From: a virus
Length of the DNA stretch: 41,013 bases
UHGV virus genome: UHGV-1836508
Direction: 5' to 3' (one strand)
Positions 3,709-39,697 of this stretch are shown here, in pieces. The notes under the pieces were generated by a model, which saw only the letters and a program-made list of their open reading frames with translations, was not told where the DNA came from and did not search any database. The translations under genes were made by a program, and so were the position numbers. Position 1 is the first letter of the stretch. Each line of letters starts with the position of its first letter.

Positions 3709-6700
3709 TCAAAGCCGACCAATCCTCACTCGAAGGACATTATTGTCATCATAAACGTCAATCCTCTGACCATTTATAACCAATCTCCCATTGCCGCCAC
3801 TATTGCCGTTGATCTCAAGCGTTCCATTTTTACCAAATCGCCATCCGGCTCGTCCGCTTACGAAGTTTGTTGATTGCAAGTCACCTACCTTTGCATTTGT
3901 GATAGTACCATCCTTAATATACGCACCATTCATGTATGCAACGCTGTTTTCGATAACAAATGGTGTGGTGATCTTTCCGTTAACTGAGTTAACTAGACCA
4001 AATCGATCTGCTTGCACCAAAAACTGGGAAAGCCCCGTGGTGTCAATTCCAAGCGCAATACCTGCGACATATTTTTGCCCACCACTTGTTGACGTTTCCA
4101 TCTTCAACGTCCACGCGGTTGAAACCTTTTTGTTAGTATCAGCAATAGCAGTTGCCTGCTCTTGAATTGTCGCTGTATTTCCATCAACTGATGCTTTTAA
4201 GGTGTCAATTCGTCCACTTAGAGCATTGTCGGCGTTTGTGCGCACAGTCGCCTCAGACGTAATCGCGGCATTAATATCTTTGCTCGTTTGCGCCTGTAGA
4301 TTAGTGATGCTAGAAGCCAAAGCCGAATCAGCGTCAGTTCTGGCTTTCGTCTCTTCTGCTACAGCCGCCTTAATATCTTTACCCGTCTGGCTCTTCAATG
4401 TGGTTATCTGTTGTGCTAAAGATTCATCAGCAGTTGCTCGGGCAATTTTTTCTTCAGATATAGCTGCACTAATATCGCCTTCAATTTTGGCTTGTAACGA
4501 TAGTATTTCTTTTGAAAGTGCTTCATCGGCACTAGCTCGTGCCTCTTGTTCACTCACAATTGCGGCAGAAATATCATCGTTAATCTTTGATTCAAGTTTG
4601 GTGATTCTGCTTGCAATAGCATTATCAGCATCTACACGAGCCGTTGTTTCTTCAGTGATTGAAGCTCTGATATCCTCATTTATTTCAGCGCGAATTTCCT
4701 CCATTTTCGTAGCCATTGCAGATATATCGTCTGCAAAAGCCTTCTGAGTTGTGGTGATCTTCGCATTACTCACCATCTGCTTGTGCTGATCTTCATCCTG
4801 ACGCAAAGCAAGATCGATGTTTGTTTTAGCCAATGCCTCAATGTTTGTCGTAACTTCGGCACTAGAACGTTCAACTTCAGCCACGGTTTTTTTCATTTCT
4901 TCAATGGTGGCTAAACTGCTATCTACAGTTGACTTCATCGCCTCGATTTCTTTCGCGTTTGCCAAGTCACCCTCAACTCGTGCTTCACGCTCCTCCGCAA
5001 TTAAAGCCGATGAATTGTCAAGTGCTGCATTTGCCGCCTCAACAGCTCCAGCTACAGCTTTACCCTGCTCTGATACAGTTTCCTGCAACTGAATTAAGGC
5101 AGCGTTAGAGTTTGCAACCTCCTTAAGTGCGTCTTCCACCTTGCTGACAGTACCGGAAACTTCCGTTTTAAGATTGTTTTGAGCTTCTTCAAGCCGCTGA
5201 TCGGCATCTGTAAATTTGTCATCGAGGATTTTCAGACTTTCTTCCATCTGTTGATAGATGGAATCCACCGCCTCCTGAGATACTTTTGAGTCGATTTCCT
5301 CAAGTAAAGTCTGGCCAAGTTCAGAAGACGTAATTTTGCCTGTCAGGAACGACAGCACATCGCGAGTCGTCGCCTCTGTACCCAAGTTTGAGTTCGGAGG
5401 ACTCAACATACCGCGCTTGTTTGACGCACGAACCCAGTAATACCACGTTTCGCTATCCCCAAGACCAGCATGTGTAAAGGTGGTGCTTGCAGACTCTGCG
5501 ATCAGTTTCGCTGTATCCAGATTGTTGGTCTGGGATGCGTAAACATTAATGTGATCAAGGTCTACCGAATCTGGATTAACCCAATTCAGTATCACATTAC
5601 GATAGTCTCCAACGGCTGTTAATGACGTTGGGGCATCTGGCGGTGTCATTGTGCCCAGCACCTGATAAACGGTACTGATAATCTCTGTTTTTTTACCGTT
5701 GAATGAAACCGCATACAGCTGGAAGTCGTAGCGTCCATTCTCCGCGACATTAACGATTTCGTATTGCTCTTCGGTTACACGCGCCGATTGCCAGTTCGAT
5801 ACATTGTTTGCATCAGAACGTCGCCAACTGATCCAATACTCTGGAGATTTCCCTTCCCATGTTGCAGTCAGTTTTACTGACAGGTTGCCCGGGCTTGAGA
5901 GATAAGTCCCTTCAGTGATTTGCAAATTAGACGGCTTGGAATAAGTCGGGTCCAATACCGTCGTATTCTGCGGGATAAGCGTTGCACCATTGTCGATCGC
6001 CTCATATTTAGACGGATTGTTCTCAACAGCGGTGATGTCAAAGCTACCCGGCGTTTCCCCCTGTGCTATGTTAACAATGCGAACGCGCATAGGTTCGAGG
6101 TCTGGTTCTGTAATAGTCCAGACGCCGTTCAAAACAGGCGTTTCAGCCGAAGACAGGGCTTTTGAAAACGTAACTTTTGTTATATTTTCGCCAGTTTCAA
6201 GAACATCGCGTTCAACGATTTTGCCTTCCTGATTCAGTATTCGAATAAAGCAGCCGCCTTTGGCTAACGACACAGGCGCATCGAGTGTGACGCTGTTTTT
6301 GGTAAACGCCACAATTCGACCTGAGTTACGTTTGCCTGCGCGATATTTGTTCTGAATCAGAACGGTTTCACCAGGCATCAAAAATGACGCGTCTAAGCCG
6401 GCAGTAAATGTAATTACATCCGACTCCATTCTGGCGGTATATAAAAGCCACAAACCAACTCGGTGAGCCTGCCCTCGGCTTGTACAGCCAAATGCCACGA
6501 CTTCTGTCTTACGCTCACCATAACGGCGCATTGCGTCCTGATCTTCAACGTACTCGATGTTTTGCTTATAACCGTCCTCCTTGTTGTTGTAGGTTACGAG
6601 CGCAACGGATGGGCGATCTTTACGCGCAGAACCTTTATAGGTAAACAATCCATCTTTGACGTTAGAGTTGGTAAACATCATTACCGGATCTGACGGGCTA

Positions 6701-23535: not shown

Positions 23536-24792
23536 CTATCGAGAACCACCAAGAATAACACGGTTTTTGACTGGATACCTACGATGTACTGGATAGCCCA
23601 ATGCGTCTGCACTATGCTCAATGCCACCTGTCTTATCCATATCTCGTGTTCCAGGCTTGTAGATGACTTTTTCCAGTGAATCAATCAAATGCTTGCACTT
23701 CGGATCGATATACAGCCGGATATCTCCAGATGCGGTCATCAGCATTCGGTTAACAGCATTAACACGATCCGCAATTGGCGGGTGCTTTTTCGAATAATCG
23801 ACACGTAAGAATCCCTTCTCTTTGAATATGTCGACGTCAGACTCCCCGCGAGCATGTTGGCGATAAGCACCTGCCGGATCTGGAAATACCGTTATCTGTG
23901 ATTTCCAGCGCCAGAAGCGTCTCTCAAGCTCATCACAAACCTCTGCCGTGTTAGAGGAAAAGAGCACCAATTCATCAATTGCCCATAGCTCACCATTTGG
24001 CTGAGGTTGCAAAATTACTGAAGACATCGGGTCAATGTTGAAGTCCTGCCCTACCCATATAGGCAACCGAGGGTTGAACTGAAGCGGTTTTACATGCACG
24101 TTACGATCGAACGGGTAGTAAACGCGCCCGGACATGTTCTCAAAGCTCGCCAGGTACTCCTGAGCGAACGATTTCGGGTCCATATCGTTCTTAGCAGCTT
24201 CAATTTCCGCCGTAGGTACAAACGGAGAATCGGCAGTTACAAACTGCCAGCTCTTCCACTGTCCCTTTCTTTGCAGCTCTACGTTCTGGCCTATAGTCCA
24301 CAGTTTGTGAAATTCCGAGAAGCCTTTTGGCGTACCAATGATCAGTGCACCGCCGCGTGTCGATGAAAGAGTAGGTCGTAACACCTTGTACCAGGTGTCA
24401 GCCTTCATATCCTGAAATTCATCAAGCACTACAAAATGCAACGCTACGCCGCGCAGAGTGTCAGGCTTATCAGCACCTTTGAGGGCGATCTCCGAACCGT
24501 TCTTCAACACGATTGTCATCGTGGTGTCGTTCTTTTTCCTAACCCACTTACGAGGCAGAACTTCCTGTAGATCGTCCCACAAAATCTGGCGAGCCATCTG
24601 GTAAGTAGGAGCGACATACCAGACTCTTTGCTTTTTTTCCTTTGCCGCCGCACGAATAATAGTGGAGATCGACAACCGGGATTTTCCCCAGCGTCGACCA
24701 GCACAAACAACTTTAAATCGATGCGGAGACTGGAAGACTTTCATCTGTCCAGAATGCAGTTGCACAAGACTGAGCGAGGACGGGATTGCCAT
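23536..24792 (-). CDS. terminase large subunit
   Basis: Walker A …VVCAGRRWGKSRLS… and Walker B VVLDEFQDM in the N-terminal ATPase half; position before portal. Confidence 0.85.
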   Translation of the reverse strand: MAIPSSLSLVQLHSGQMKVFQSPHRFKVVCAGRRWGKSRLSISTIIRAAAKEKKQRVWYVAPTYQMARQILWDDLQEVLPRKWVRKKNDTTMTIVLKNGSEIALKGADKPDTLRGVALHFVVLDEFQDMKADTWYKVLRPTLSSTRGGALIIGTPKGFSEFHKLWTIGQNVELQRKGQWKSWQFVTADSPFVPTAEIEAAKNDMDPKSFAQEYLASFENMSGRVYYPFDRNVHVKPLQFNPRLPIWVGQDFNIDPMSSVILQPQPNGELWAIDELVLFSSNTAEVCDELERRFWRWKSQITVFPDPAGAYRQHARGESDVDIFKEKGFLRVDYSKKHPPIADRVNAVNRMLMTASGDIRLYIDPKCKHLIDSLEKVIYKPGTRDMDKTGGIEHSADALGYPVHRRYPVKNRVILGGSR

Positions 24793-25424
24793 TATTCGTC
24801 CTCCCCTTCAATTCCATCATCTGTCGCATCAAATTCGCTTAGAGCTTCTTCTTCCAACGTCTCAAGCAATTCGTCATCGATGATTTCAGGCTCGTCGTCT
24901 TCCTGACGTAATTTCGCCACCTGGGAAGGCGTAAGCTCACCAAATACCAGGTTCGGAATTTCTTCCTCGTCATTTTCCGCATGATCCATGCCCAATGCTT
25001 TGGACGAAACTTCAAAGCATTTTGCAAGGGTATTACTGGCTCTCTGTAAGCTCTTGAGAGAATCCTCAATCGCCCCTAAAGGCTTACCCTCACGTTTGGC
25101 CGTAGTGACTTCGACCATCACCATCTGCCCCAACGCATACGCCCAGCCGTCATAACGTGTACGACGTTCTTCTATCTTTTCCGCACGGGCTTTAGCGCGA
25201 AGCTCTGCGTCAGATTTAAGAGACTCACGAACCATCTTCCCAACAGAGTCCGCGCCTTTCTCTAATCCTCGCTTTTTGAAATGTCTGGAGAGTGTTTCAC
25301 GACGAATGCCGTACTCTTCCTCCAGCTTTGAGAGTGTATATTCGCCTGACGTCCATTTGGCTTCAGCTTCGGCCCACTCCGCTGGTGTCAGGCGAGTTTT
25401 TACCTCGTCTTTTTCGACCGTCAT
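24792..25424 (-). CDS. terminase small subunit (putative)
   Basis: 210 aa, HTH-like N-terminus (YTLSKLEEEYGIRRETLSRHFKKRG), acidic C-terminal tail, stop overlaps large-subunit ATG (TAATG). Confidence 0.6.
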   Translation of the reverse strand: MTVEKDEVKTRLTPAEWAEAEAKWTSGEYTLSKLEEEYGIRRETLSRHFKKRGLEKGADSVGKMVRESLKSDAELRAKARAEKIEERRTRYDGWAYALGQMVMVEVTTAKREGKPLGAIEDSLKSLQRASNTLAKCFEVSSKALGMDHAENDEEEIPNLVFGELTPSQVAKLRQEDDEPEIIDDELLETLEEEALSEFDATDDGIEGEDE

Positions 25425-25619: not shown

Positions 25620-25886
25620 TTACATCACCAGTAACTTCGCTTTGGCTCGACCTAAAGTGGTTAACCCAAGAGTCCGGCGGTGATAGCGATTGTCACTGCG
25701 TTGGCGCGTATGCCCTTTCTCCACCAGCCCCTTTTTTATCAGAGCGCGAATTGAGAACTGGATACTTTGCTTGGTTGTCTTGTACGGCAAAACTTCAAGC
25801 AATTCGTCCAGGTCAAGTAGATGACCTCGCTCATAACCGAGATTGAGCGTTTTGATGATGTCCTTTTGTTTATCGGTTAACGTCAT
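25620..25886 (-). CDS. small winged-helix-like DNA-binding protein (putative regulator)
   Basis: 88 aa, basic C-terminus, helix-turn-wing pattern (…QSIQFSIRALIKKGLVEKGHTRQRSDNRYHRRTLGLT…); SD AAGGA 7 nt before the ATG; last gene of the ParB operon. Confidence 0.45.
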   Translation of the reverse strand: MTLTDKQKDIIKTLNLGYERGHLLDLDELLEVLPYKTTKQSIQFSIRALIKKGLVEKGHTRQRSDNRYHRRTLGLTTLGRAKAKLLVM

Positions 25887-25895
25887 GGCAAATCC

Positions 25896-26786
25896 TTATG
25901 CCGGTAAAGCAATTTCTAACGGTTTATCCAAAGGTTGTTTGTCGAATGCCAGCAGTGGCAGCGTGTCAGGCAGTCGACGGCCAAAGTCAGGGTTTCGGTA
26001 CACACCATACAACGGAGACGTAAAGCTCAGGTTGTGAATGTCCTTGAGCAGCTTCACAATGCTGGCCTCGTCCACCAGACTGTCGGCAATGTCCTGAATC
26101 GTCGTGCCACGATTCCGCCCAGCTTTTGCCAGGGAACTGTTCTTATGGTAGTCCGCCACCAAATCGCGCAGCGCACGGCGACGACGAGACTCGCTCATAG
26201 CGAACAACTCTTTGACGATCGCCTCGTTATCACCCGGGTCGGAGCGGAAATGGCGCTGGAACACACGCAGTGCACTTTCATAGCTCTTCGGTCGCTCAGG
26301 GCGGATGAACTTAAACCCTGCTTTCATGGCGAAGGGATTGTATTTGCTCATCGAGGACTGGATCTCAATGATTGGCCGGTCATGCATCCTGCTAACCAGG
26401 TTAATCATTCTATAAGAGACGCCTACGCCACGATACTGAGTATCCACAACTGAGCGACTGATCACCGCAAAGTTGTTATTCACGTACCGACCCCAGTACT
26501 GGTTAGCCACGGTGGTATTAGTGGTTGGTTTCAACTTAGGAAACATGCGGTGGCGAGGTGCCAACAGTAGTTTCGGGTAAGCCATAACCACGACGCCCAC
26601 CAGACGGTCATCAAGTTCGCAGCGATAGTAAGTTGGCGCGAAAGGTTTGCCGTCTGTTTTGTAGTGAAGCGACTTAAGAGCGTGCCAGTCCTCTACAGTT
26701 CCCTTTGTAACAGTCATTCGCTCCAGAAAGTCCAGATGACGCGGAAACTCTTCAGGGCGGTAGCGTTTAATGATGATGTCCGTCAT
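25896..26786 (-). CDS. GNAT-like acyltransferase-fold protein with C-terminal extension
   Basis: GNAT motif A-like QYRGVGVSYRMI preceded by hydrophobic strands, and motif B-like YNPFAMKAGFKFI; about 130 extra C-terminal residues. ATG overlaps the ATPase stop (ATGA). Confidence 0.5.
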   Translation of the reverse strand: MTDIIIKRYRPEEFPRHLDFLERMTVTKGTVEDWHALKSLHYKTDGKPFAPTYYRCELDDRLVGVVVMAYPKLLLAPRHRMFPKLKPTTNTTVANQYWGRYVNNNFAVISRSVVDTQYRGVGVSYRMINLVSRMHDRPIIEIQSSMSKYNPFAMKAGFKFIRPERPKSYESALRVFQRHFRSDPGDNEAIVKELFAMSESRRRRALRDLVADYHKNSSLAKAGRNRGTTIQDIADSLVDEASIVKLLKDIHNLSFTSPLYGVYRNPDFGRRLPDTLPLLAFDKQPLDKPLEIALPA

Positions 26787-27448
26787 GAATGGACCTCATC
26801 ATGACTACCATTGTGATATTCCACCTTCACGCGTTCTTTGTAGTGCTTGGTGATCTGCATATCAGGGCGCAGCGCGTTCTTCAGGTCTTCGTGAGTCGTC
26901 GCCACCATTACCGTCGCACCAACCTTTCGAGCGGCACGCTGGAGGTTAGACGCCACAACCTGAGCGGTTACACGGTCGAGAACAGCGCCGAACTCGTCAG
27001 CAGCCCATACTTTAGCGCCTGACTCAATCAGTTTGGCAATCTTGAGACGATATTTCTGGCCGTCTGACATTTCAGAAGGCTTGCGAACAAACAGATATGC
27101 ATCGTTCAGACCAGCCATAGATAACAACCCAAGCGCATCACTGGTCGTTTTGCCCAACTGATCGATGACGTTAACCTCATTATCGAAGGTAAAATCATCG
27201 ATGGAGGCTACAGACAGCCCTTCATCCTTCATCTGTCGTTGCAACTCGCGCAGCACAACGGATTTGCCGGAACCGGATTGGCCGGTGATGTACACCACAT
27301 CGCCCTGCTTCACTTCCAGCTCCAGATTGTCGTAAAGCGTCCACTCTTTTTCGTCCAGGCCAAGCCCGAACGACTCAGCGATTTCCAACGTGCGCGTGGT
27401 TTTATTTACGCGTGTCTGAAACGATACGTTGATGATGTATTTGCTCAT
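26783..27448 (-). CDS. stand-alone ABC-type ATPase (nucleotide-binding domain only)
   Basis: Walker A GQSGSGKS, ABC signature MSDGQ, Walker B VWAADEF, H-loop TTHED; no transmembrane segment; ATGA overlaps on both sides. Confidence 0.75.
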   Translation of the reverse strand: MSKYIINVSFQTRVNKTTRTLEIAESFGLGLDEKEWTLYDNLELEVKQGDVVYITGQSGSGKSVVLRELQRQMKDEGLSVASIDDFTFDNEVNVIDQLGKTTSDALGLLSMAGLNDAYLFVRKPSEMSDGQKYRLKIAKLIESGAKVWAADEFGAVLDRVTAQVVASNLQRAARKVGATVMVATTHEDLKNALRPDMQITKHYKERVKVEYHNGSHDEVHS

Positions 27449-28113
27449 GCAGCCATCTCCCCGGAAGAGATCTTCTCCGCATATGCCACAAATGCGTCTA
27501 CCCCGCTTTCTCCCGTCATTTCTTCCATATGGGCAAGCAAATCACCAACAACAATGGCAGAGCCAGCAGGGAGCGTTTTAAAGCCCAATACGTCGACAAC
27601 ACGTACTTCTTCCGCTGCAACTTCACGACTGATCTCGGTGTGTTCATCCTTCTGTCGTTTAGTTTCTTCGCCAAGATCGATAACTAGCGAGTCGGTGTCC
27701 ATTTCTTCTGTCATACTGCCAACGAGAACATTCAACTCACGCTCTTCAAAGCCGAAAACCTCAATATCGTCCAGAACAAGCGACTCAAGCTCTTTCTGTA
27801 GCTTAATTGCATCGTAATCAATGCTGGCAAGTCGGTTATCTTCAAGGCGCTTCGCACGAACCTCGTCATCACTCAGATCATCACGAACAATAACCGGTAC
27901 GCGCTCAAGTCCAGCAAAAATTGCAGCCTCACGGCGGCCGTGGCCAGTAATAATTACGTCGTTCTTATCGACCGTAATTGGCTGGTCAAATCCGCGCTTT
28001 TTAATGGCTGCGGCCAAATCTCTGATCTGCTGTTCATCATGCTTTTTGGCATTCATCTCATAGGGAATAAGATCTGCCGGGTCGCGATATACGATTTCAA
28101 ACTTTTTGGTCAT
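27445..28113 (-). CDS. ParB/Srx-fold (ParB N-terminal domain) protein, paralogue 2
   Basis: …VIITGHGRREAAIFAGLERVPVIV… matches the ParB arginine-rich motif; ATG at 28113 overlaps the upstream stop (ATGA). Confidence 0.75.
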   Translation of the reverse strand: MTKKFEIVYRDPADLIPYEMNAKKHDEQQIRDLAAAIKKRGFDQPITVDKNDVIITGHGRREAAIFAGLERVPVIVRDDLSDDEVRAKRLEDNRLASIDYDAIKLQKELESLVLDDIEVFGFEERELNVLVGSMTEEMDTDSLVIDLGEETKRQKDEHTEISREVAAEEVRVVDVLGFKTLPAGSAIVVGDLLAHMEEMTGESGVDAFVAYAEKISSGEMAA

Positions 28114-28811
28114 TACATACGCTCCTTGTAGTAGTCGACCAGCCACACCAGAGCCTCACCAGCGTTCTCCATTTCATTACCGGTGTTAATAGCCTGCTCT
28201 TTGATGATGTTTTTTATGGTTTCTGCAACACGATCTGACGCATCGAAAGTTACTTTGAAGCGCATGGTCTGATGTTCCGCACCCACACGTTCGGTTTTCT
28301 CTCGTTTGTCGGTATCGACAGGCTCATCACTACCACGAGACAACGCCTCCAGTGCTTCAAGGTCGATTGCCGCCTCTTTTGCTAAAACCATCGAGATTTC
28401 GTCGTCATACGGGGCGATTTCAGACAGTTGATAGTCAAGTTCTGACTGAATTTCTTCAATGAAGCGTTGCAATGCGATTTGGTCGTCTTCACCGTATCGC
28501 TCGTTGTCCACCAGTGACATCTGTTTAGCTACGACATCGCTAATTTTGCCCACAGAAAGCACCGGAACCGTTGAAATTCCTTGCTCAATAGCAGCACGCC
28601 AGCGATGTTCACCGCCGAGGATTTCAAAAAATCCATCTTCAAGTTCACGAGCCAAAATTGGCTTAAAAAAGCCCAATTTTTCGATAGAACCTTTCAGTTT
28701 TTCAAAATTCTGCGCACCAACCGAATTGGTGTTCCAGGTATTCGGGCGAAGGTTGGCAACATCAACCTGCAAAATCGTGATTTTTACATCCATTTTATTG
28801 CTACAATCCAC
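28113..28811 (-). CDS. ParB/Srx-fold (ParB N-terminal domain) protein, paralogue 1
   Basis: …EILGGEHRWRAAIEQGISTVPVL… is close to the canonical ParB GERRxRAA box. Start uncertain (GTG 28811 or ATG 28793), both with weak SD. Confidence 0.7.
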   Translation of the reverse strand: MDCSNKMDVKITILQVDVANLRPNTWNTNSVGAQNFEKLKGSIEKLGFFKPILARELEDGFFEILGGEHRWRAAIEQGISTVPVLSVGKISDVVAKQMSLVDNERYGEDDQIALQRFIEEIQSELDYQLSEIAPYDDEISMVLAKEAAIDLEALEALSRGSDEPVDTDKREKTERVGAEHQTMRFKVTFDASDRVAETIKNIIKEQAINTGNEMENAGEALVWLVDYYKERM

Positions 28812-30437: not shown

Positions 30438-30716
30438 ATGAGCGAAAAGAAAACAACTTATTGCCAGGTGGCATTGTCTGATAAGGCCAATGAAAAACTT
30501 GGAAAATTCCAAATAAAACTCAAAGAGAAAAAAATCAAGATGTCTAAGGCTGAAGTTATCAATGCCATTCTGGAGACGATGACTATGGCTGAATTTGACA
30601 AAGTCACATCTGCCGTTGGGGTTTCCGCTAAGACGCGTGAGAAAATCATGCGCATCTATGAAAACTCCAATATGACAAAAAAAGATCTAGAGGAAATACT
30701 GAGCAGGTTGCCGTAA
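30438..30716 (+). CDS. hypothetical 92-aa protein (Lys-rich)
   Basis: ATG 2 nt after the helicase stop, so likely coupled; no recognisable motif. Confidence 0.5.
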   Translation: MSEKKTTYCQVALSDKANEKLGKFQIKLKEKKIKMSKAEVINAILETMTMAEFDKVTSAVGVSAKTREKIMRIYENSNMTKKDLEEILSRLP

Positions 30717-30748
30717 CATTTCATATTTACCCCCTATCTACTAATTCT

Positions 30749-30784
30749 ATGATGTGCTCACTTGTTAGAAAGGAGCACATCATG
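30749..30784 (+). other. 11-bp perfect stem-loop sequestering the SD and start codon of the next gene
   Basis: ATGATGTGCTC (30749-30759) pairs with GAGCACATCAT (30773-30783); loop holds AGAAAG of the SD; the ATG at 30782 is in the stem. Confidence 0.55.
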
Positions 30785-31348
30785 AGTTGGTTAAAAGAAT
30801 TATCATTTGTTGACACCACTGGCGCTAAGAAAAATCATTCTTTCTGGAAAGTCAGCGATCCTTCTGATTTTCTTGTTGGTGCTAATGCTGCTTTTGAATT
30901 GCTTAACTTTTATCAACGTTATCCAGAAATGAAACACAGTCCACTCCTGTACAGAATAACAAACGATATGAATAGGTCTGGTTTATTATCAAGTGAGTCA
31001 GCGAAAGGCTTTTTTAGCAAAATTACGCCTCACATATCATTCGATGCAACAAACGAAATTGATTATCTATCCACGAAATCTCAAGAACAATTATCTGTAC
31101 CACCTGAGAAAAAAGAAAGACGAATTGCCAGCATTGAAAATATATCGAAAGAGCTTCGCACAACAACGTTGAGGCTGCTGAACTTTCTTACGCTGCTTAA
31201 TTGGATAGATGATCAAACATTGATTCCATCAACAGATGCGTTGGATAACAGAGTCCTTAGGCTGAACAAAAAATCGCAATTTGGTTTTGTGTTCACCAAA
31301 AAAGGTGAAGATTTAATCAAAAGAAAATATAGATTATTGAATGATTAA
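30782..31348 (+). CDS. hypothetical 188-aa protein (AT-rich accessory gene)
   Basis: SD AAAGGAG 7 nt upstream of the ATG at 30782; the track start at 30749 lacks an SD. Confidence 0.55.
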   Translation: MSWLKELSFVDTTGAKKNHSFWKVSDPSDFLVGANAAFELLNFYQRYPEMKHSPLLYRITNDMNRSGLLSSESAKGFFSKITPHISFDATNEIDYLSTKSQEQLSVPPEKKERRIASIENISKELRTTTLRLLNFLTLLNWIDDQTLIPSTDALDNRVLRLNKKSQFGFVFTKKGEDLIKRKYRLLND

Positions 31349-32635: not shown

Positions 32636-33157
32636 ATGGTTAAAGACATCACCTACGGCATACCGGCTGAAGTCTGGCCGCGAGACTACGAACATGCTGA
32701 AAACATACTTATGTTCTGGCGGAAGAACAACATTCCTGTAAGAGTCACGCTTGAAGACGGTCAGGTGTTTTGCATGTACGTTCAGGGGACAATGCCTTCC
32801 CGCAATAAGCTAGATTTATGCCCGCTTCCATATGATAAAGAAAATCGTATAAGACTCCCACTTGAGCGCATTAGCACAATTGAATCAGGTGTAATCGATG
32901 GCATTGCTCGCGAGTTCAAAGGTAGGCTAACAATACATCCAGACTATGTTGACAATCAGCCATCACGCCGTGACTTTTTTGCGATATGTCGCAAGGCTTA
33001 TCAAAACGACCAATCTATAAGGGTCTACATGACAGACGGTCGTGAAATAGAAGGGGTGTCAAGAGGCGTTGATGCTTGCCAGGTCACTCTTAAATTAGAA
33101 GACGGCAGAAAAATACTTGTTTTCTTCGATTGGGTTGAACGAATCCTTCCATTTTAA
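32636..33157 (+). CDS. hypothetical protein with two tandem Rof/YaeO-like repeats (possible Rho modulator)
   Basis: Internal duplication …VRVTLEDGQVFCMYVQG…RIRLPLERISTIE / …QVTLKLEDGRKILVFFDWVERI resembling the LTLELKDGE…RLDKITSF pattern of Rof; TATAAT at 32602-32607 upstream. Confidence 0.35.
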   Translation: MVKDITYGIPAEVWPRDYEHAENILMFWRKNNIPVRVTLEDGQVFCMYVQGTMPSRNKLDLCPLPYDKENRIRLPLERISTIESGVIDGIAREFKGRLTIHPDYVDNQPSRRDFFAICRKAYQNDQSIRVYMTDGREIEGVSRGVDACQVTLKLEDGRKILVFFDWVERILPF

Positions 33158-33367: not shown

Positions 33368-33452
33368 TATCGATAATTGAACTCGTCGAAAGCGAGCTAG
33401 CTAACGACAGTAAAAAATAAATTCATTTTAATTTTTCGTAAGGATGTCCATC

Positions 33453-34103
33453 ATGACTAACATTATCATTTCTAAAAAGTCCATCATTGAAGCTGCTGCC
33501 ATTGTATCCGACGAGCTGCGCGAAAAAGCAGATCTGGCAACTCAAACATATAACGAACATTATAAAAATGGTACGCACACAAAAGCAGACAAAGCAAATA
33601 TGCAAGCTGCGACCACCAAACTTGCTTACTTCATCAACAACGTCGTAAACGCAGTAGAAGACGAAAAATTGTGCTCTGTTTTCTACTATGCGATCAAAGC
33701 AAGCAAACAAGCGCCAGAAGTATTTTTCCGTGATGCAATGACTAATAGTTATTCTCTGGAAAAACTGGTTTATCTGGTTAAATCCATTAAAGCTGGAAAG
33801 TGTGTTTATTCCGTCGCTGATATGTCCGGATCTCGTGTATTCGCATTAATCGATATGATTAACGACGAGATCGAGACGTTCACAAATGGCGCTGTTTTCG
33901 ATTTAATGAATGAAGCGAAAAAAGCCAACGAAATAAAATTAGACGCAGGATACACTCAAGCCAACCAGCTTATCAATCTTTGCGAACGTCTTGGACTTGT
34001 TGAGAAAGTCAAAGGAATGGGAAGCGCAAAAGCTGGTACGCAGCAATATCGCTTTATTAAAAATGATTTCTATAACTATCTGGCTGATGCTTTCAAAGCG
34101 TAA
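33453..34103 (+). CDS. hypothetical 216-aa protein
   Basis: SD AAGGA before the ATG at 33453; own promoter and terminator; no motif recognised. Confidence 0.55.
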   Translation: MTNIIISKKSIIEAAAIVSDELREKADLATQTYNEHYKNGTHTKADKANMQAATTKLAYFINNVVNAVEDEKLCSVFYYAIKASKQAPEVFFRDAMTNSYSLEKLVYLVKSIKAGKCVYSVADMSGSRVFALIDMINDEIETFTNGAVFDLMNEAKKANEIKLDAGYTQANQLINLCERLGLVEKVKGMGSAKAGTQQYRFIKNDFYNYLADAFKA

Positions 34104-34410: not shown

Positions 34411-34434
34411 CGTTTCCAATACTCCCACCATAAC

Positions 34435-34456
34435 GCGCCAATGATGGCGCTTTTTT
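34435..34456 (+). terminator. second tandem intrinsic terminator
   Basis: GCGCCA-atga-TGGCGC then TTTTTT; further weaker GC hairpins follow to about 34580. Confidence 0.65.
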
Positions 34457-34758
34457 ATTGTCTTTGACTCACTCCAACAACATAAAAATAAGCGCCAAAA
34501 TAACGCCATAGACGCGCTTTTATATCCTTACCAGTACATACCCATTACTTAGCGCATTAACGCGCTTAAATCGCGTTATATTGCGTTATGGTGTATGGTT
34601 AATCATTGGCTTTTATTCTTGCTATGTGATCCGCGTTTATTTGTCGGCGCAGATCGGCATTTTGTGTTGTTCTGTGTCCGCTCGCATATGATTGCCACGT
34701 TGGGCAACGTGTACGCGCTTACAGTGATTTACCCACGGATTCACATAATCACATAGCG

Positions 34759-34995
34759 AAAGCTATCTGGATGGCCCAGGGGCTGAAACCCCCACCAGCG
34801 ATACCCCAGCGCCGCTACGCAATTTCTGGCGCGATTCCGGGTTTCTCCCGCTCAGTTTTCTACATAAAGGCGACCCCCGCCGTTTCCCGAAAAAATCCTG
34901 GCCGTTTCCCGTCGGCTCATGAATACGTTCCTCGCCGTTTCTGAAAATTTCCCTGCGGCAGCTGGTGGCTATAGAGAAAGGGCCGTTTCTGGCCC
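34759..34995. repeat. iteron array 1: about 6-8 direct repeats of (G)CCGTTTCC(C)-type units
   Basis: gccgtttcccgaaaaaa (34878), gccgtttcccgtcgg (34901), cgccgtttctgaaaat (34933), tttccctgcgg (34950), gccgtttctggccc (34982) plus degenerate copies; non-coding. Confidence 0.75.
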
Positions 34996-35004
34996 TCTTC
35001 TCAG

Positions 35005-35487
35005 TTACACGCCATCAAGGATGTGGATGCGGTTGCTTGCGTATACATTCAGCATAAAGTTAGCGCAAAACAGTTTCCATGTATCAACGCCAGCGGTATA
35101 CGTAATGTTTTTGCATTTAATCGCATTGTTGGCGATCCGCATCCCCTGCGATACTGCTTCATCGTCGGAAAATTTGAACGACGATTGAGTTTTAATCCAG
35201 ACAGAAATCTGCGTAGCGAACTCAATCAGCTTGGACTGGCAGAATCGCCCGGAGCGCACCGGAAAGACGAACGTTCCGAATCCAGAATTTACCACATACG
35301 CTTTCTCAAATACCCGCGAGTAACGACGATTGCCAATGATGTCGCGTGCAATAATGCATTTTTCTTGTGCTGACAGTTCTACCGTCTCATTGTCGCGCCA
35401 TGCACCAAGTACTCGTTTTTCAATGTCAGAGAACGTTACAGCGATATTGCCATGTGCGGGTGCGTTTACAGTAGCGATAAAATTCAT
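35005..35487 (-). CDS. hypothetical 160-aa early-cassette protein A
   Basis: ATG with SD AAGGAAA; own promoter and shared leader element. Confidence 0.6.
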   Translation of the reverse strand: MNFIATVNAPAHGNIAVTFSDIEKRVLGAWRDNETVELSAQEKCIIARDIIGNRRYSRVFEKAYVVNSGFGTFVFPVRSGRFCQSKLIEFATQISVWIKTQSSFKFSDDEAVSQGMRIANNAIKCKNITYTAGVDTWKLFCANFMLNVYASNRIHILDGV

Positions 35488-35508
35488 GATTATTTCCTTA
35501 TCGTAAAT

Positions 35509-35562
35509 AACAAATTGTTTTCTTGTTGGTGTTAATTATCGTTGTACGAATAAGGCGTCAAA
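35509..35562 (-). promoter_or_regulatory. promoter (TTGACG - 15 bp - GATAAT) plus conserved leader element for gene A
   Basis: Minus strand reads TTGACGccttattcgtacaacGATAATtaACACCAACAAGAAAACAATTTGTT, then SD and ATG. Confidence 0.55.
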
Positions 35563-35662
35563 GTGGAAAGTTGCGGTAGCCGGACGAGAACAGGTGGGTT
35601 TGTCGGTTGCCTGGAGGTAAGAGGTTGGTGTTTTTAGCCTGCGGGAAACAGGATGGTCATTT

Positions 35663-35686
35663 AAGGCCACCAGCATTGGTGGCCTT
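35663..35686 (-). terminator. hairpin (terminator or processing site) after gene B; contains a Chi octamer
   Basis: AAGGCCACCA-gcat-TGGTGGCCTT; near-identical copy at 36134-36157. Confidence 0.45.
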
Positions 35687-35691
35687 AGTCT

Positions 35692-35973
35692 TTAGTGGAG
35701 CAGACCGATGTCGATGGTATCCCCTGAATCATCCACACGGATCATCAGCATGGCGAAGGCGTTTAGTGGATAGCTTGCGTGCCATTCAGGGAAGCGGTCA
35801 TCTCGCATGAAGTCGGCAATGTCGTAAACGCATCCCTCAAAGTGGAAGAATCGCGTGCTTACCTGCTCGTCATAATCCACATGATCCATTTCTTGCTGTT
35901 CTGTTTCCGGCAAGTCCAGCCATGATTCAAGGAATACATTTTGTGCTTTAGGGGTAATGGTGAAATCAGTCAT
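35692..35973 (-). CDS. small strongly acidic early-cassette protein B (93 aa; DNA-mimic-like composition)
   Basis: ATG at 35973 with SD GAGGA (the longer track ORF has no SD). About 22 Asp/Glu against about 5 Lys/Arg. Shares a D(I/A)ADFM(R/D) segment with gene F. Confidence 0.55.
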   Translation of the reverse strand: MTDFTITPKAQNVFLESWLDLPETEQQEMDHVDYDEQVSTRFFHFEGCVYDIADFMRDDRFPEWHASYPLNAFAMLMIRVDDSGDTIDIGLLH

Positions 35974-35992
35974 GAGCATATCCTCACTGCGT

Positions 35993-36024
35993 AAACATGT
36001 TGTTTTCTTGTTGGTGTAATTATC
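35993..36024 (-). promoter_or_regulatory. -10 GATAAT plus conserved leader element for gene B
   Basis: Minus strand GCGATAATtACACCAACAAGAAAACAACATGTTTAC. Confidence 0.5.
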
Positions 36025-36133
36025 GCAGTGTAGATAAGGCATAAAAGAAGTTAATACAGGCTGAATACACAAGAAAGGTTCTGGAAGTTGATAGCCAGGT
36101 TTCAAACTAACCTTCGGTTATTAAAAGTCATTT

Positions 36134-36157
36134 AAGACCACCAATGCTGGTGGCCTT
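36134..36157 (-). terminator. hairpin (terminator or processing site), inverted copy of the 35663 element; contains a Chi octamer
   Basis: AAGACCACCA-atgc-TGGTGGCCTT, followed on the minus strand by a U-rich tract. Confidence 0.45.
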
Positions 36158-36308
36158 AATAATTATCGCCCGATTACGCTAAGGATCTTTTCCTCAACTG
36201 ATTTGTTGTTGCGACTAAACTGCCTTGCGTATCTGATGACAGAAGAGGCGTTTTGCTTTCTGACCATCTCGGCTCTTTCCTTCAGGCGTTTCTTGAAATC
36301 GCCCATAT

Positions 36309-36683
36309 TTACCACCAGGCGCAGAAGGTCAGTCTGTTATTGTGAAAGTCGTGGTTCTTAATCAGATCTTCCACAAGCTCTTTCAACTCCCCCACATCAT
36401 GCCAGTAACCTTCATCGTACTCCTGACTGCCGAAGAAAAAACCTTCCCGGGTAGGCAAGTACTCTTCGCAATTACTTTCGTTTATGTGCATCAAATGAGC
36501 CTTCAGAAAACAAATGTCATTCATCGTTAATTCTAAAAGCTCACAATTTTCGACTTCACCTACGTTGCGCTCCATCCACCCAACGAGCGCATTGAACTTA
36601 CGGAAGTAAGCAACCCGCTTTCTGGATGCCTCGTTATTCAGATCGTTTTTAGGCTGTGTCTCGATATAGATATCAAGTCCCAT
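36309..36683 (-). CDS. hypothetical acidic early-cassette protein C (124 aa)
   Basis: ATG at 36683 with SD AAGGAA; track start 36725 is GTG without SD. Confidence 0.55.
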   Translation of the reverse strand: MGLDIYIETQPKNDLNNEASRKRVAYFRKFNALVGWMERNVGEVENCELLELTMNDICFLKAHLMHINESNCEEYLPTREGFFFGSQEYDEGYWHDVGELKELVEDLIKNHDFHNNRLTFCAWW

Positions 36684-36737
36684 GATGGTTTCCTTATTAA
36701 GTTGCTTCAGTGAAATCATTTTCACAAATCAGATAAG

Positions 36738-36760
36738 GCAGAAAACAAATTGTTATCGGG
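36738..36760 (-). promoter_or_regulatory. conserved leader/operator element upstream of gene C, in inverted orientation
   Basis: Plus strand gcagaaaacaaattgttatcggg. Confidence 0.4.
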
Positions 36761-36768
36761 CTTAATAA

Positions 36769-36791
36769 AATGGCGCGGTTTACGCGCCATT
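36769..36791 (-). terminator. intrinsic terminator after gene D
   Basis: AATGGCGCG-gttta-CGCGCCATT then TTATT on the minus strand. Confidence 0.65.
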
Positions 36792-36800
36792 TAAAGAGGA

Positions 36801-37196
36801 TTAAGCGAATACGCTTTCAGGGATTAAGGTGTCGGCAGGAATGCCAGAGGTAATGCGCAGGCCGTACTGACCAATCCAGGTAGTGTTGGTATTCAGGTTG
36901 GAGGCGAATACGGTGTTAACCATATTCATCATGGTTTCAAACACCTCTTCATCAACCTGGCGGAAGTAGTTCTCGATTTTCAGCAGCAGCGGGTCAGTTG
37001 CATCGAGAATGGACTGGTATTGAGTCGCGTACTCGCCGTCGGAGGCATCACCTTTACGCACGATCGTACTGGCCTGGACTTCGGCACCAGTTTCGGTGTT
37101 GTACGTAACAACGGTGATTTTTGCCACATTCTTACCTTCGGCGGTTTCAGAGGCATAGTAAACATCAACTGTCAGTTTTTCGCGTTTAACGGTCAT
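36801..37196 (-). CDS. hypothetical 131-aa early-cassette protein D
   Basis: ATG at 37196 with SD GGAGAG; own sigma70-like promoter. Confidence 0.55.
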   Translation of the reverse strand: MTVKREKLTVDVYYASETAEGKNVAKITVVTYNTETGAEVQASTIVRKGDASDGEYATQYQSILDATDPLLLKIENYFRQVDEEVFETMMNMVNTVFASNLNTNTTWIGQYGLRITSGIPADTLIPESVFA

Positions 37197-37228
37197 TTCA
37201 CTCTCCGTAGTGTTTTGGTTATTTTTAT

Positions 37229-37257
37229 ATTCTATGATCGTAGGTATGTACTTACAA
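37229..37257 (-). promoter_or_regulatory. sigma70-type promoter for gene D (TTGTAA - 17 bp - TAGAAT)
   Basis: Hexamers read on minus strand; -35 lies within a GTAAGTAC motif. Confidence 0.5.
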
Positions 37258-37266
37258 TACAAAAAA

Positions 37267-37289
37267 AGCCCCGTAAGGATGGCGGGGCT
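37267..37289 (-). terminator. intrinsic terminator after gene E
   Basis: Minus strand AGCCCCGCC-atccttac-GGGGCT followed by TTTTTTT. Confidence 0.8.
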
Positions 37290-37323
37290 GTCGTACTGTC
37301 GACTAATTACCACTTGCACATTA

Positions 37324-37635
37324 TCAGGCTATTGCCATCACTGATGCTCTCTGAATTTCTTGCTGGGCCACGCGGTTAACTTCCATCAAAGCCAGTTCGA
37401 GCTGATGTTCCGGCCACATTCTTTGAAATGCCATCCAGCCTTTTCCACGCTGGCGACGAACATTCATTACATAACGAGTAAAGGTGTTTTTATCGAAAGA
37501 CACCGCTGTTTCACGGAACAGACGAATAGAGGTTCCATTGGCAACGATGTCCAGCAAAGTTAATTGAGCAACCAGCGCAGGCTTCTCTTTTCTCTTCTGG
37601 TCTTTGTCCAGACCAAGAACCAATGATTTTTTCAT
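37324..37635 (-). CDS. small basic early-cassette protein E (103 aa; possible nucleic-acid-binding regulator)
   Basis: ATG at 37635 with SD GGAG; Lys/Arg-rich. Confidence 0.5.
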   Translation of the reverse strand: MKKSLVLGLDKDQKRKEKPALVAQLTLLDIVANGTSIRLFRETAVSFDKNTFTRYVMNVRRQRGKGWMAFQRMWPEHQLELALMEVNRVAQQEIQRASVMAIA

Positions 37636-37646
37636 CACAACTCCGT

Positions 37647-37681
37647 AAACAACTTGTTTTCTCAATGGCGTAAATAATACC
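37647..37681 (-). promoter_or_regulatory. -10-like TATTAT plus conserved leader element for gene E
   Basis: Minus strand GGTATTATttacgccattGAGAAAACAAGTTGTTTAC. Confidence 0.45.
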
Positions 37682-37789
37682 AGTAAGAAAACGGCTACAA
37701 AGCATATTGATCAGGCGCATGAGCGATATGCAGGTTCTTCCCTGCGGCTACAGATTAAGTTAAGCCAGCATTGCTGGCTTTGGTTGGGA

Positions 37790-38119
37790 TTACGCGATTA
37801 CCTCAAGAAACTCCTGAACGTCCCAATGCTGGACGAGGTGAAGATAGACCTTAGAAATCACGTCATTTTCGCTATCGCATGTGAAGTAGTACTTCTGGCT
37901 GCGGTTGTATGTGTCCACACAAAATTCGCTCATATCCATAAAGTCAGCATCTTCACCCATGTCGCAAATCATCAAAGCAGGTGCGTCATCACGAGTCATC
38001 AGCTCAAGCACCCACCGCGAATTGATCAGAGTGGAAGACCAACCTTCTAACTCATAAAACTGATCAAACTCTTTTTGAGTTAATTTCTTGATTTGGTTGA
38101 TGTCGATATTTGCAAACAT
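37790..38119 (-). CDS. small strongly acidic early-cassette protein F (109 aa; paralogue-like to B)
   Basis: ATG at 38119 with SD AAGGA; net charge about -15; EDADFMDMSEF segment resembles gene B. Confidence 0.55.
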   Translation of the reverse strand: MFANIDINQIKKLTQKEFDQFYELEGWSSTLINSRWVLELMTRDDAPALMICDMGEDADFMDMSEFCVDTYNRSQKYYFTCDSENDVISKVYLHLVQHWDVQEFLEVIA

Positions 38120-38132
38120 AAAGCAATCCTTA

Positions 38133-38165
38133 AACAACATGTTTTCTTGATGGTGTTATTATCGC
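38133..38165 (-). promoter_or_regulatory. -10 GATAAT plus conserved leader element for gene F
   Basis: Minus strand GCGATAATAACACCATCAAGAAAACATGTTGTTTAAGG. Confidence 0.5.
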
Positions 38166-38479
38166 AATAACGCACAAGCGAAAAAGGATTTTATTCCGGT
38201 GAATGTGGTTTTGGCAGTGAGTTTTCAGGTTCAGTACCGAGAACACTTTTTACATTATTCTGATTTAGTGGCCGAAGGTGGCTGGTGGGCAGAATAATCC
38301 TCTCCCCGAAAACCTACTGAAATCGATTGTGACCCGTTGGCTGTCTGGCACAATTACGCTGTAGCTGGGCATTCAGAGGGAATCCAGCGGTAAGTAAGTT
38401 CGCCTGCACGTGAGCGTCTCTCTTCTTCCCGCACATTACAGGTGGGTAGCCGCAACTCTCCCTCTCGCTATACCGGTAC

Positions 38480-38662
38480 GCCGCCGTTCCTGAACCGGCA
38501 TCGAGCCTTTTCCCGAAATCCACACAGGCAACTCGACCGTTTCCCTGAAAATCCCCAGCCGTTCCCCGAAGGCAATCCAGCCGTTTCTGTAGCGGGATGC
38601 AGCCTTTTCCCTGCGGCGACGCTCCCGTTCCTGAAAATGGACATAGCCTTTTCCCTGGATGG
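38480..38662. repeat. iteron array 2: eight direct repeats of (A)GCCGTTTCCCTGAAAA-type units at 20-23 bp spacing
   Basis: Copies start at about 38484, 38504, 38537, 38557, 38578, 38601, 38624 and 38645; the region has only low-complexity ORFs. Confidence 0.8.
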
Positions 38663-38699
38663 CCCGAAGGCTGACCGAAGGGGTGGAAATAGGCGTTAC

Positions 38700-39690
38700 G
38701 GGGGACGAAAATTATGGCTTGAATTTATACGAAGAAAGTAGCGATACCCCTCCTTCCCTTCCCACTTATACCTCCCACGAATTTTCTCTCTTATGTGGGC
38801 ATAAACCTTCCCTCTGATAACGCTCTATACGGCGAGTATTCCTTTGGGTGAAATGGGTGGTTTGTTCTTTCTACCGGCATATGTGGTTTCGTTCTTCTTG
38901 AGGTGGTTCTTCTCTGTGTTTTCGTCTGGGTTGTTCTCGTCGTTTTGGTGACTGTTCTTCTCCGTGTATGGAGTAATGGCAGGTGGGCGATTGCTTTCGT
39001 TATTGTGTTTGAGTTGTTTGTCTGGAGTGCGTGAAGGGCTTTTGTAGTTATTCGTGTATTGGGTAATGGCGTTTCCCGTGATTGTTATGTTTCGTGTCTT
39101 TTGGGATTGAGAGAAACCTTGCGGTTACAGGCTTCGTTGGGGTTTCAGTGATTCTGGTGTTTCTTCGCTGTTTGGGTAATGGCGTGTCGTGGGTATCGCG
39201 CGTATGGAAGTTTCGAATTGCCTGTGAAAGTTAGGTTGGTTGTCCGGTAGCCTGGGAAGAAGAGGTGGGTCTTTTCGGTAGCCTGCCATAAAGAGGTTGG
39301 TTGTTTTTGGTAATGGCATATGTGTTATTTAGTTGTTTTGTTATACCTGAAAATAAGTTGTTTATATGGTTGTGTAACGCAACGGGAGCGATTTTGAGCG
39401 TGTGTTTTTGTTGGTAGTGTGTTGAGTCGTCTGTGGTGAAATTTGGACGCTGTGGCGCTATCTGCTGCGTGGGATTACGGGTATAAGAAGTGATGTGTGA
39501 AAACGTCAATTTTTTAGACCAAATCGGGTGAAAGCGTTGACATTTCGTTGATCTGTTGTTCAGTTGTTTTCTTATTGGTATAAACAACTATAACCTATTG
39601 ATATTTAAGGATGTGATTGCAGGTATAGAATGGGGGTAGTGGCGATCAACGGATTCTTATAGAAAAGAATCAAATTGTGACCGCCATTAT
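38700..39690. other. ~1-kb GT-rich (plus strand) non-coding tract with dispersed GGTAATGGC repeats
   Basis: No plus-strand ORF of 60 aa or more; minus-strand ORFs are low-complexity with TTG start; GGTAATGGC-like motif at about 38965, 39063, 39175 and 39309. Confidence 0.6.
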
Positions 39691-39697
39691 CAATGTT

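Follow-up and report, generated by a model that had tools for sequence, protein, structure and literature searches.

Iteron origins such as the R6K gamma origin with its seven 22-bp iterons, P1 oriR/incA, lambda ori and T4 oriE carry same-strand repeats that are phased at approximately 22 bp. These repeats usually number five to eight, vary in copy number by whole units, keep a conserved spacing and lie in noncoding DNA or are tolerated within coding DNA; classical iterons are conserved over 17 to 22 bp. In P1 oriR/incA, the iterons flank the rep gene on both sides. A different arrangement is known from phage P4, whose ori and crr form two clusters of one octamer, present in both orientations and separated by approximately 4.5 kb, that are bound by the primase-helicase alpha. 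The direct-repeat centromeres R1 parC, TP228 parH and pB171 parC1/parC2 also consist of short direct repeats, which can form two clusters; they are coated cooperatively by a small DNA-binding protein, and they lie next to the par operon or on both sides of it, overlapping its promoter. Finally, the sites of ParB and Noc are palindromes of 14 to 16 bp (parS, TGTTTCACGTGAAACA; Noc site, ATTTCCCGGGAAAT). The array described here is of a known kind, an iteron-like protein-binding array, but for each specific family that we considered, one or more defining features are missing from it, and it is accompanied by an unusual partner tract.

The array lies within a window of 41,013 nucleotides, the whole stretch of DNA that was analyzed (UHGV virus genome UHGV-1836508). 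A BLAST search of the array region against phage records assigned the window to a phage-plasmid of the SSU5/pHCM2 type, with Escherichia phage Cyrano as the best match (86 % identity across 1.3 kb); the next matches were PhiR41_1, Salmonella phage SSU5 and relatives from Klebsiella. Besides tail genes and terminase, the window, which is reversed with respect to the 108-kb Cyrano genome, encodes two ParB_N proteins, a helicase of the UvsW type, a protein resembling FljA and a block of small genes of unknown function. Phage-plasmids of this type are common in Enterobacteriaceae and can bear resistance genes. Sequence related to the array was found in 716 PLSDB plasmids (from Escherichia, Salmonella, Klebsiella, Enterobacter, Citrobacter and Cronobacter), in pHCM2 of Salmonella Typhi and in 240 of 5,426 complete E. 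coli genomes (4.4 %), every time on a plasmid. A scan of IMG/VR for three cores at 22-bp spacing retrieved 86 loci, most of them SSU5-like and spaced as in the family, and a scan of viral contigs with the conserved 14-mer CCGAAGGCTGACCG, an unspecific probe, yet yielded 15 SSU5-like loci. The searchable literature contained no description of the array, of SSU5/pHCM2 iterons or of a lytic origin, centromere or other cis-acting site, and for this family we found no replication, binding or coverage experiments and no PhageTerm results. The array and a second, smaller cluster of the same motif occupy the following positions:

38481 to 38662, plus strand: main array of eight direct copies, AGCCGTTTCCC(T)GAAAA-type units with cores CCKTTYC
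34877 to 34948, plus strand: second motif cluster, with cores at 34880, 34902 and 34935 spaced by 22 and 33 bp

The initial annotation had reported eight direct repeats at spacings of mostly 20 to 23 bp, placed on one face of the helix. All eight same-strand repeats were recovered, and the starts given for them fell within 0 to 3 nt of the starts of the 7-nt plus-strand core CC[GT]TT[CT]C (38484, 38506, 38537, 38559, 38581, 38603, 38625 and 38647). When anchored at the cores, the spacing was 22/31/22/22/22/22/22 bp, so that the reported phasing of about two helical turns was borne out by the 22-bp core spacing while the repeats proved more regular than 20 to 23 bp. The total number of core 7-mers in the window was at chance level (22 observed versus 21.6 expected), but 8 of the 22 fell within 170 bp on a single strand and 4 more in the second cluster. 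A search made without the motif returned a top 8-mer (at most one mismatch) that recurred seven times within 220 bp, compared with a maximum of four to six recurrences in 40 first-order Markov simulations of the window. Tandem Repeats Finder missed the array because its spacers are too diverged. The eight phased repeats are real and exceed chance. Iterons are recognized as at least three direct repeats in a single orientation with helical phasing, and the array offers eight such copies here and six in most relatives.

The second cluster lies 3.6 kb from the main array, carries the same motif in the same orientation and sits in a noncoding gap just past the terminator-like hairpin of the last gene of a leftward block. 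Its three sites, which were left out of the construction of the scoring matrix, scored 18.3, 10.5 and 14.0 bits. A fourth match at 34983 is located inside the terminator-like hairpin itself (34979 to 34996) and may be coincidental. The cluster is conserved in Cyrano, SSU5, pHCM2, the Enterobacter and Klebsiella relatives and the most divergent relative. In the complete Cyrano genome, matches above 13 bits were confined to the two clusters, and a motif-agnostic scan of the same genome revealed the RepA iterons and the two clusters as the only noncoding repeat arrays.

Comparison with related phages had been named initially as a check of the array, and every relative examined had conserved both the cores and the spacing pattern, as a protein-binding array would predict. 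Six copies spaced by 22/31/22/22/22 bp are the usual form (23 loci in the scoring-matrix scan); counted by exact cores, about 34 of 93 loci show this spacing, as do most loci with a full array. Mean column entropy across 14 distinct six-copy arrays was 0.12 bits in the cores and 0.47 bits in the spacers, and the 31-bp spacer keeps its length although its sequence has wholly diverged between the Cyrano and SSU5 types. The 22-bp period is retained in Klebsiella plasmids that are approximately 70 % identical overall. CCGTTTC cores persist in both clusters of the most divergent relative found, a K. quasipneumoniae contig with a neighboring protein of 53 % identity, despite diverged flanks, and the spacing of its main array is irregular (26, 10 and 24 bp). 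These comparisons indicate that the sites are under purifying selection, probably as short recognition sites, and that in most lineages the phasing is selected as well.

The copy number of eight, in contrast, holds for the window and is not a trait of the family, whose norm is six. The left flank together with copies 1 to 5 is 97.5 % identical to Cyrano and 74 to 78 % identical to the SSU5 type; the remaining copies have the opposite affinity:

38601 to 38665, plus strand: copies 6 to 8, the SSU5/pLAO18-type part, 95.4 % identical to SSU5 and 70.8 % identical to Cyrano

The 165 bp that follow copy 8 also match the SSU5/pLAO18 type best, and Cyrano-type sequence resumes from 39101. Because copies 1 to 5 are of the Cyrano type and copies 6 to 8 of the SSU5 type, the eight-copy array is, judged from these identities, a recombinant of Cyrano-type copies 1 to 5 and SSU5-type copies 4 to 6, and its left crossover falls inside a repeat. 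The eight-copy form was absent from the complete E. coli genomes in the collection, in which the best match was 44 bp shorter.

The array region had also been described as noncoding, and this description proved right. The open reading frames that overlap the array are short (58 to 99 amino acids) and not conserved, and an annotated 134-amino-acid frame above the array in Cyrano is disrupted in the window. Relatives differ in the array by indels of 22 or 44 bp, which would break any reading frame running across it. The array match had no annotated gene beneath it in any row listed for the 240 plasmids of E. coli, nor in nearly all of those listed for the 716 PLSDB plasmids, and a conserved protein-coding gene spanning the array, which would have spoken against the initial proposal, was looked for and not found. 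The surroundings of the array contain the following features:

38141 to 39697, no strand: gene-free gap of approximately 1.5 kb between two minus-strand genes in the list of open reading frames; it contains the array
38666 to 38830, plus strand: conserved block leading from the array to the skewed tract, with GGCTGACCGAAGGGGT, GTTACGGGGGA, the C/T-rich run CCCCTCCTTCCCTTCCCACTTATACC and CTCTATACGGCGAGTATT
38831 to 39640, plus strand: G/T-rich strand-skewed tract (A 17 %, C 12 %, G 31 %, T 39 %)
38188 to 38217, minus strand: sigma-70-like promoter candidate of the leftward operon from a consensus scan (CTGCCA-18-TAAAAT), approximately 270 bp from the first repeat
38156 to 38170, no strand: palindrome TTATTATCGCAATAA, a candidate operator in the predicted 5′ leader of the leftward operon
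35005 to 38140, minus strand: leftward block of seven to eight small genes, bracketed by the two repeat clusters

The gap, whose left bordering gene may start at 38119, recurs at the same place in all relatives examined (Klebsiella, SSU5, pHCM2, Enterobacter, E. coli plasmids and locus L331, the most divergent relative). The conserved block, which can also be described by the motif CTCTATACGG beside the C/T-rich run, contains columns that are invariant in an alignment of four phages and motifs shared with Klebsiella, and CTATACGG-type motifs are repeated in locus L331. The skewed tract carries four G(T/A)AATGGC motifs (38973, 39063, 39176 and 39311) and almost no GATC, and GGWGTAATGGC was not enriched elsewhere in the window. 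Its skew is conserved over 750 bp in five other loci (GC skew of +0.29 to +0.42 and AT skew of −0.35 to −0.41) and can likewise be seen in the most divergent relative. The second cluster, the strand-skewed tract and the recombinant origin of the eight copies had escaped the initial annotation.

We consider it very probable that the array constitutes a set of conserved binding sites for one sequence-specific protein that binds them cooperatively. The nearest DNA-binding candidate is encoded 4.4 kb from the array:

33444 to 34103, plus strand: gene of a 219-amino-acid protein (phrog_1513), a candidate binder of the repeats that always adjoins the second cluster

The structural model of this protein (mean pLDDT of 85) combines a helical N-terminal domain with a C-terminal winged helix, whose predicted recognition helix is invariant among homologues down to approximately 54 % identity. 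The family comprises 23 representatives in 1.84 billion proteins, and a profile search with it detected no relatives beyond the family. By proximity and predicted fold, the protein is only a candidate for the binder, and its invariant recognition helix, as predicted, is compatible with a conserved DNA target. We sought relatives without the array in which the candidate would have been lost together with it, and found none; the partial matches (NZ_CP028997) carry the array. The neighboring 160-amino-acid protein gave no fold match. Two ParB_N proteins (27445 to 28811) are encoded within the terminase operon. The first has a Spo0J/Noc-like N-domain with a GGEHRWRAA box, and few identities to Spo0J were present across the region that aligns to its DNA-binding part.

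As to the function of the array, we tentatively favor, with clearly less than even confidence, the recognition module of a vegetative origin that acts together with the conserved strand-skewed tract. A protein that is most likely encoded by the element, and is not RepA, would recognize the core CCGTTTCC in units phased about two helical turns apart and coat the six to eight sites into a phased nucleoprotein complex. This complex would serve as the recognition module of a second, lytic origin and act on the adjacent tract, C/T-rich at first and then G/T-rich and skewed, by opening it or by firing a primer transcript that stays hybridized, with the second cluster in the auxiliary part that crr plays for the origin of phage P4.

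Several observations argue for a vegetative origin. The plasmid origin is already accounted for by RepA. The element encodes its own helicase, primase and Pol III alpha as well as T4-like UvsW, UvsY and gp32-type proteins, with UvsW inside the window, and this replisome with its T4-like recombination genes comes without a lytic initiator or origin that we could recognize in the element, which favors the same reading. Arrays of CCGTTYC cores at 22-bp spacing in unrelated phages lie inside O-type or winged-helix initiator genes, which suggests that arrays of such build are usually origins and favors an origin here too. The adjacent skewed tract could open or hold an RNA-DNA hybrid, and the family-restricted winged-helix protein encoded nearby also counts toward an origin context. 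The RepA plasmid origin itself was rejected as an identity of the array. The element's RepA, of the IncFIB/pHCM2 type, has oriR/incA-like iterons of similar architecture in the same genome, namely 21-bp phased direct repeats, which in Cyrano are of the CTCTATAGTGGAT type and lie on both sides of repA (60 to 62.5 kb), as the iterons of P1 do around rep. Their sequence is nevertheless unrelated to that of the array (CTCTATAGTGGAT versus GCCGTTTCCC), the array motif is absent from them, and in Cyrano they flank repA at a distance of 33 kb from the array.

Comparison with iteron origins reveals both likeness and difference. Like them, the array combines same-strand phasing at about 22 bp with copy changes by whole units and conserved spacing, and it is noncoding. 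Unlike them, its conserved core occupies just 7 to 10 bp of each 22-bp unit, no initiator gene adjoins or overlaps it, and in place of an AT-rich element or a DnaA box there is the long skewed tract. Searches of the 5 kb to either side of the array with Pfam and PHROGs detected neither a Rep nor an O-type family, the DnaA box TTWTNCACA had no match between 34300 and 39800, and no AT-rich unwinding element lies beside the repeats, stretches of 72 to 75 % A+T occurring only at least 650 bp away. IHF-like matches were found only at the edges of the gap (38081, 39591 and 39688). All of these findings count against an origin, as does the irregular spacing in the most divergent relative. Cumulative GC skew along the Cyrano genome runs monotonically, follows gene orientation and gave no origin signal. 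In overall layout there is a likeness to P4, in that one large and one small cluster are separated by 3.6 kb; P4 differs in the mixed orientation of its repeats, and we recognized no homologue of its alpha protein here.

A bolder version, which we regard as unlikely, holds that the array, the C/T-rich block and the 0.8-kb skewed tract together make up an undescribed type of vegetative origin that is served by a new winged-helix initiator, either phrog_1513 or another family-specific protein. Bound to the CCGTTTCC sites, such an initiator would trigger a persistent RNA-DNA hybrid or strand opening in the skewed tract, and this would feed the T4-like replication and recombination machinery of the element (UvsW, UvsY, the gp32-like SSB, the DnaB-like helicase and Pol III alpha), again with the second cluster as an auxiliary site. 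Apart from the RepA iterons, the genome has no iteron-like feature other than the array, taken together with its partner cluster and the skewed tract, and with the RepA plasmid replicon already known, it is a candidate for one of the missing functions, such as lytic origin or centromere. Its function, if known, would help to explain how the element switches from plasmid maintenance to lytic amplification, would inform incompatibility and typing schemes and would supply vector parts.

An architectural or regulatory role is possible, though rather unlikely. A regulator, for example the 219-amino-acid protein, would bind both clusters and loop or insulate the block at 35005 to 38140, where it would control the promoter near 38190 or block read-through from an upstream gene that is expressed in the lysogen. 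In favor of this role, the clusters enclose exactly one transcription unit and point in the same direction, and the stretch from the array to the first gene of this unit contains a promoter-like site and an invariant palindrome. In the LF82 lysogen, expression falls from about 57 at CYRAN_102 to the floor of 5 across the tract (PMC9928086). A minus-strand transcript of the tract would be rich in C and poor in G and resemble a Rho loading site, and the looser spacing in the divergent relative also counts toward a regulatory array. The promoter, however, is 270 to 470 bp away, which is far for a simple repressor or activator, and an array of six to eight phased sites is large for a regulator. 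Moreover, the bracketed genes vary among relatives while the arrays persist: only the last gene of the block (160 amino acids) is always kept, and the block contained no Pfam family and only PHROGs of unknown function. Manual inspection revealed no correctly spaced sigma-54 promoter near the array, since in TGGCAC (38346) the distance from GG to GC is wrong and a second candidate lacks conservation. The palindrome at 38156 to 38170, which is invariant in four phages and in Klebsiella, resembles the P1 C1 operator; it occurs only once in the window, so that no dispersed set of operators was found.

A partition centromere appears quite unlikely. On this reading the array would be the site for the small partner of the ParA ATPase (CYRAN_28, CYRAN_29) or for a ParB_N protein of the window and would serve plasmid segregation. 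Centromeres of types Ib and II typically consist of direct-repeat arrays, the array resembles R1 parC, TP228 parH and pB171 parC1/parC2 in its short direct repeats and two clusters, and in Cyrano parA has no adjacent repeat array that could be its centromere: the region upstream of it contained neither a similar motif nor a repeat array. The ParA partner belongs to no Pfam family and is hence not demonstrably a ParE toxin. As a lead, the best-conserved unit GTTTCCCTGAAAAT agrees with the Noc site ATTTCCCGGGAAAT at 11 of 14 positions and also resembles parS half-sites, and the core GTTTCCC looks like a hybrid of parS and Noc half-sites; the array nevertheless consists mostly of half-sites in direct repeat and not of palindromes. 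Known centromeres adjoin their par genes, but the array is tens of kilobases away from the par genes, approximately 42 kb from parA on the Cyrano circle (parA at 29.3 kb, array at 95.3 kb) and approximately 10 kb from the ParB_N genes. The location of the latter in the terminase operon and their few identities to the DNA-binding part of Spo0J also speak against a centromere here, and a weak TTTGATAA array in CYRAN_30, just downstream of the par genes, provides an alternative candidate.

That the array is a packaging signal, where the small terminase subunit would bind a pac or cos accessory site, is very improbable. Some terminase-binding regions do contain phased repeats (lambda cosB, SPP1 pacL), and the array is oriented. 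The terS gene (24792 to 25424), however, lies approximately 13 kb away and has its own upstream noncoding gap of 195 bp, and a pac site would not be expected to have a second cluster at a distance of 3.6 kb. The ends of related IMG/VR loci and contigs are not fixed relative to the array, with offsets spread evenly from 114 to 6851 bp on both sides of it, though these ends probably reflect data storage. Among the functions first suggested for the array, which were those of an origin, a pac site, a centromere-like site or a regulatory array, the underlying prediction of a protein-binding array was supported, pac lost ground through the distance to terS, and a centromere would not lie beside parA.

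Hardly credible, finally, is an RNA-level element, in which repeated CAGGGAA/CAGGAA motifs of a minus-strand transcript would sponge CsrA or another RNA-binding protein: GGA, which a CsrA sponge needs, is present on the minus strand in 6 of the 8 main-array units, but the conserved minus-strand core is GAAACGG and not GGA, and some units are without GGA (one main-array copy, one copy of the second cluster and the doubtful hairpin match at 34983). A search of the array against Rfam, CsrB/Rsm families included, returned no match at E values up to 1, and neither strand folded better than shuffled sequence (z = +0.84 and +0.66, slightly worse). In RNA sequencing of the LF82 lysogen, the two spurious Cyrano open reading frames over the array and the tract were at or near the expression floor (PMC9928086, Table S1). 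The strict 22-bp register of the repeats is a feature of the DNA level.

The gene-free gap that holds the main array (eight phased direct repeats, 38481-38662 on the plus strand) bears the marks of exchange between two sub-lineages, the pLAO18/SSU5 type and the Cyrano type. A patch of SSU5/pLAO18 type, extending from 38601 to approximately 39000, lies within a region that is otherwise of Cyrano type, a mosaic that shows homeologous recombination between the sub-lineages, with one crossover falling inside the repeat array. The same gap is depleted of GATC, which is absent from 38141-39549 (1.4 kb), the window mean being 4.1 per kb; five relatives likewise contain no GATC in the equivalent 750-bp tract, the G/T-rich, strand-skewed stretch to the right of the array.

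The Chi octamer (GCTGGTGG) is strongly enriched in the window, with 13 sites in 41 kb versus the approximately 1.3 expected, and the whole 108-kb Cyrano genome carries 25. Examples from the window are as follows:

34792, minus strand, Chi site
34961, plus strand, Chi site
35667, minus strand, Chi site
36146, plus strand, Chi site
38281, plus strand, Chi site

In most lineages, cluster 2, a smaller cluster of the main-array motif, lies between two Chi sites, one on the minus strand approximately 64 to 88 bp to the left and one on the plus strand approximately 25 to 58 bp to the right. The plus-strand Chi located approximately 200 bp to the left of the main array is retained in both E. coli and Klebsiella types. 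Within the block of small leftward genes, a Chi octamer also lies at or overlaps each of two near-identical hairpins, and palindromes occur at two positions outside that block:

35661-35688 and 36132-36159, opposite orientations, 28-nt hairpins (TTAAGGCCACCAGCATTGGTGGCCTTAG) listed as terminator-like
34696-34712, palindrome CACGTTGGGCAACGTG
38156-38170, palindrome TTATTATCGCAATAA, invariant, within the leftward operon's leader

The palindrome at 34696-34712 has a conserved counterpart, CACGTTGGCGCAACGTG, at 3820-3840 of the Klebsiella relative L329. The noncoding gap to the left of cluster 2 (34430-34600) contains approximately nine copies, in both orientations, of a TAACGCG/TAAGCGC-type motif, which is also found in Klebsiella relatives and may constitute a separate binding-site cluster.

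The leader palindrome occurs only once in the window and reads ATTGCGATAATAA on the minus strand, which resembles the P1 C1 operator ATTGCTCTAATAAATTT. The leftward block opens with a gene (37790-38140) that probably starts at its second ATG, at 38119; this codon has an AAGGA ribosome-binding site, and the PHROG profile alignment begins at residue 8.

Unrelated IMG/VR phages carry classical 22-bp iteron origins inside O-type or winged-helix initiator genes (L313, 10774-10900; L252, 12555-12640), and these iterons happen to share a CCGTTYC core with the main array. In L252-type loci, two TTATCCACA DnaA boxes adjoin the iterons. In Cyrano, a little downstream of parA and CYRAN_29, CYRAN_30 contains five TTTGATAA/TTTGATGA-type repeats within 260 bp (30581-30841), a possible alternative candidate for the centromere of the ParA system.

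FljA is the repressor of phase-1 flagellin, and a full-length homologue is encoded at 32636-33157 (PF03614, E value of 1e-80), at a position conserved in the relatives checked for it. Directly upstream of terS lie five further genes:

25620-28811, minus strand, genes for two proteins with a ParB_N domain, one ABC-type ATPase, one unknown protein of 296 amino acids and one protein of 88 amino acids

The 88-amino-acid protein gives a faint LexA-type winged-helix match. Together with the terminase genes, these five look like one unit, and their order is retained in the divergent relative L331.
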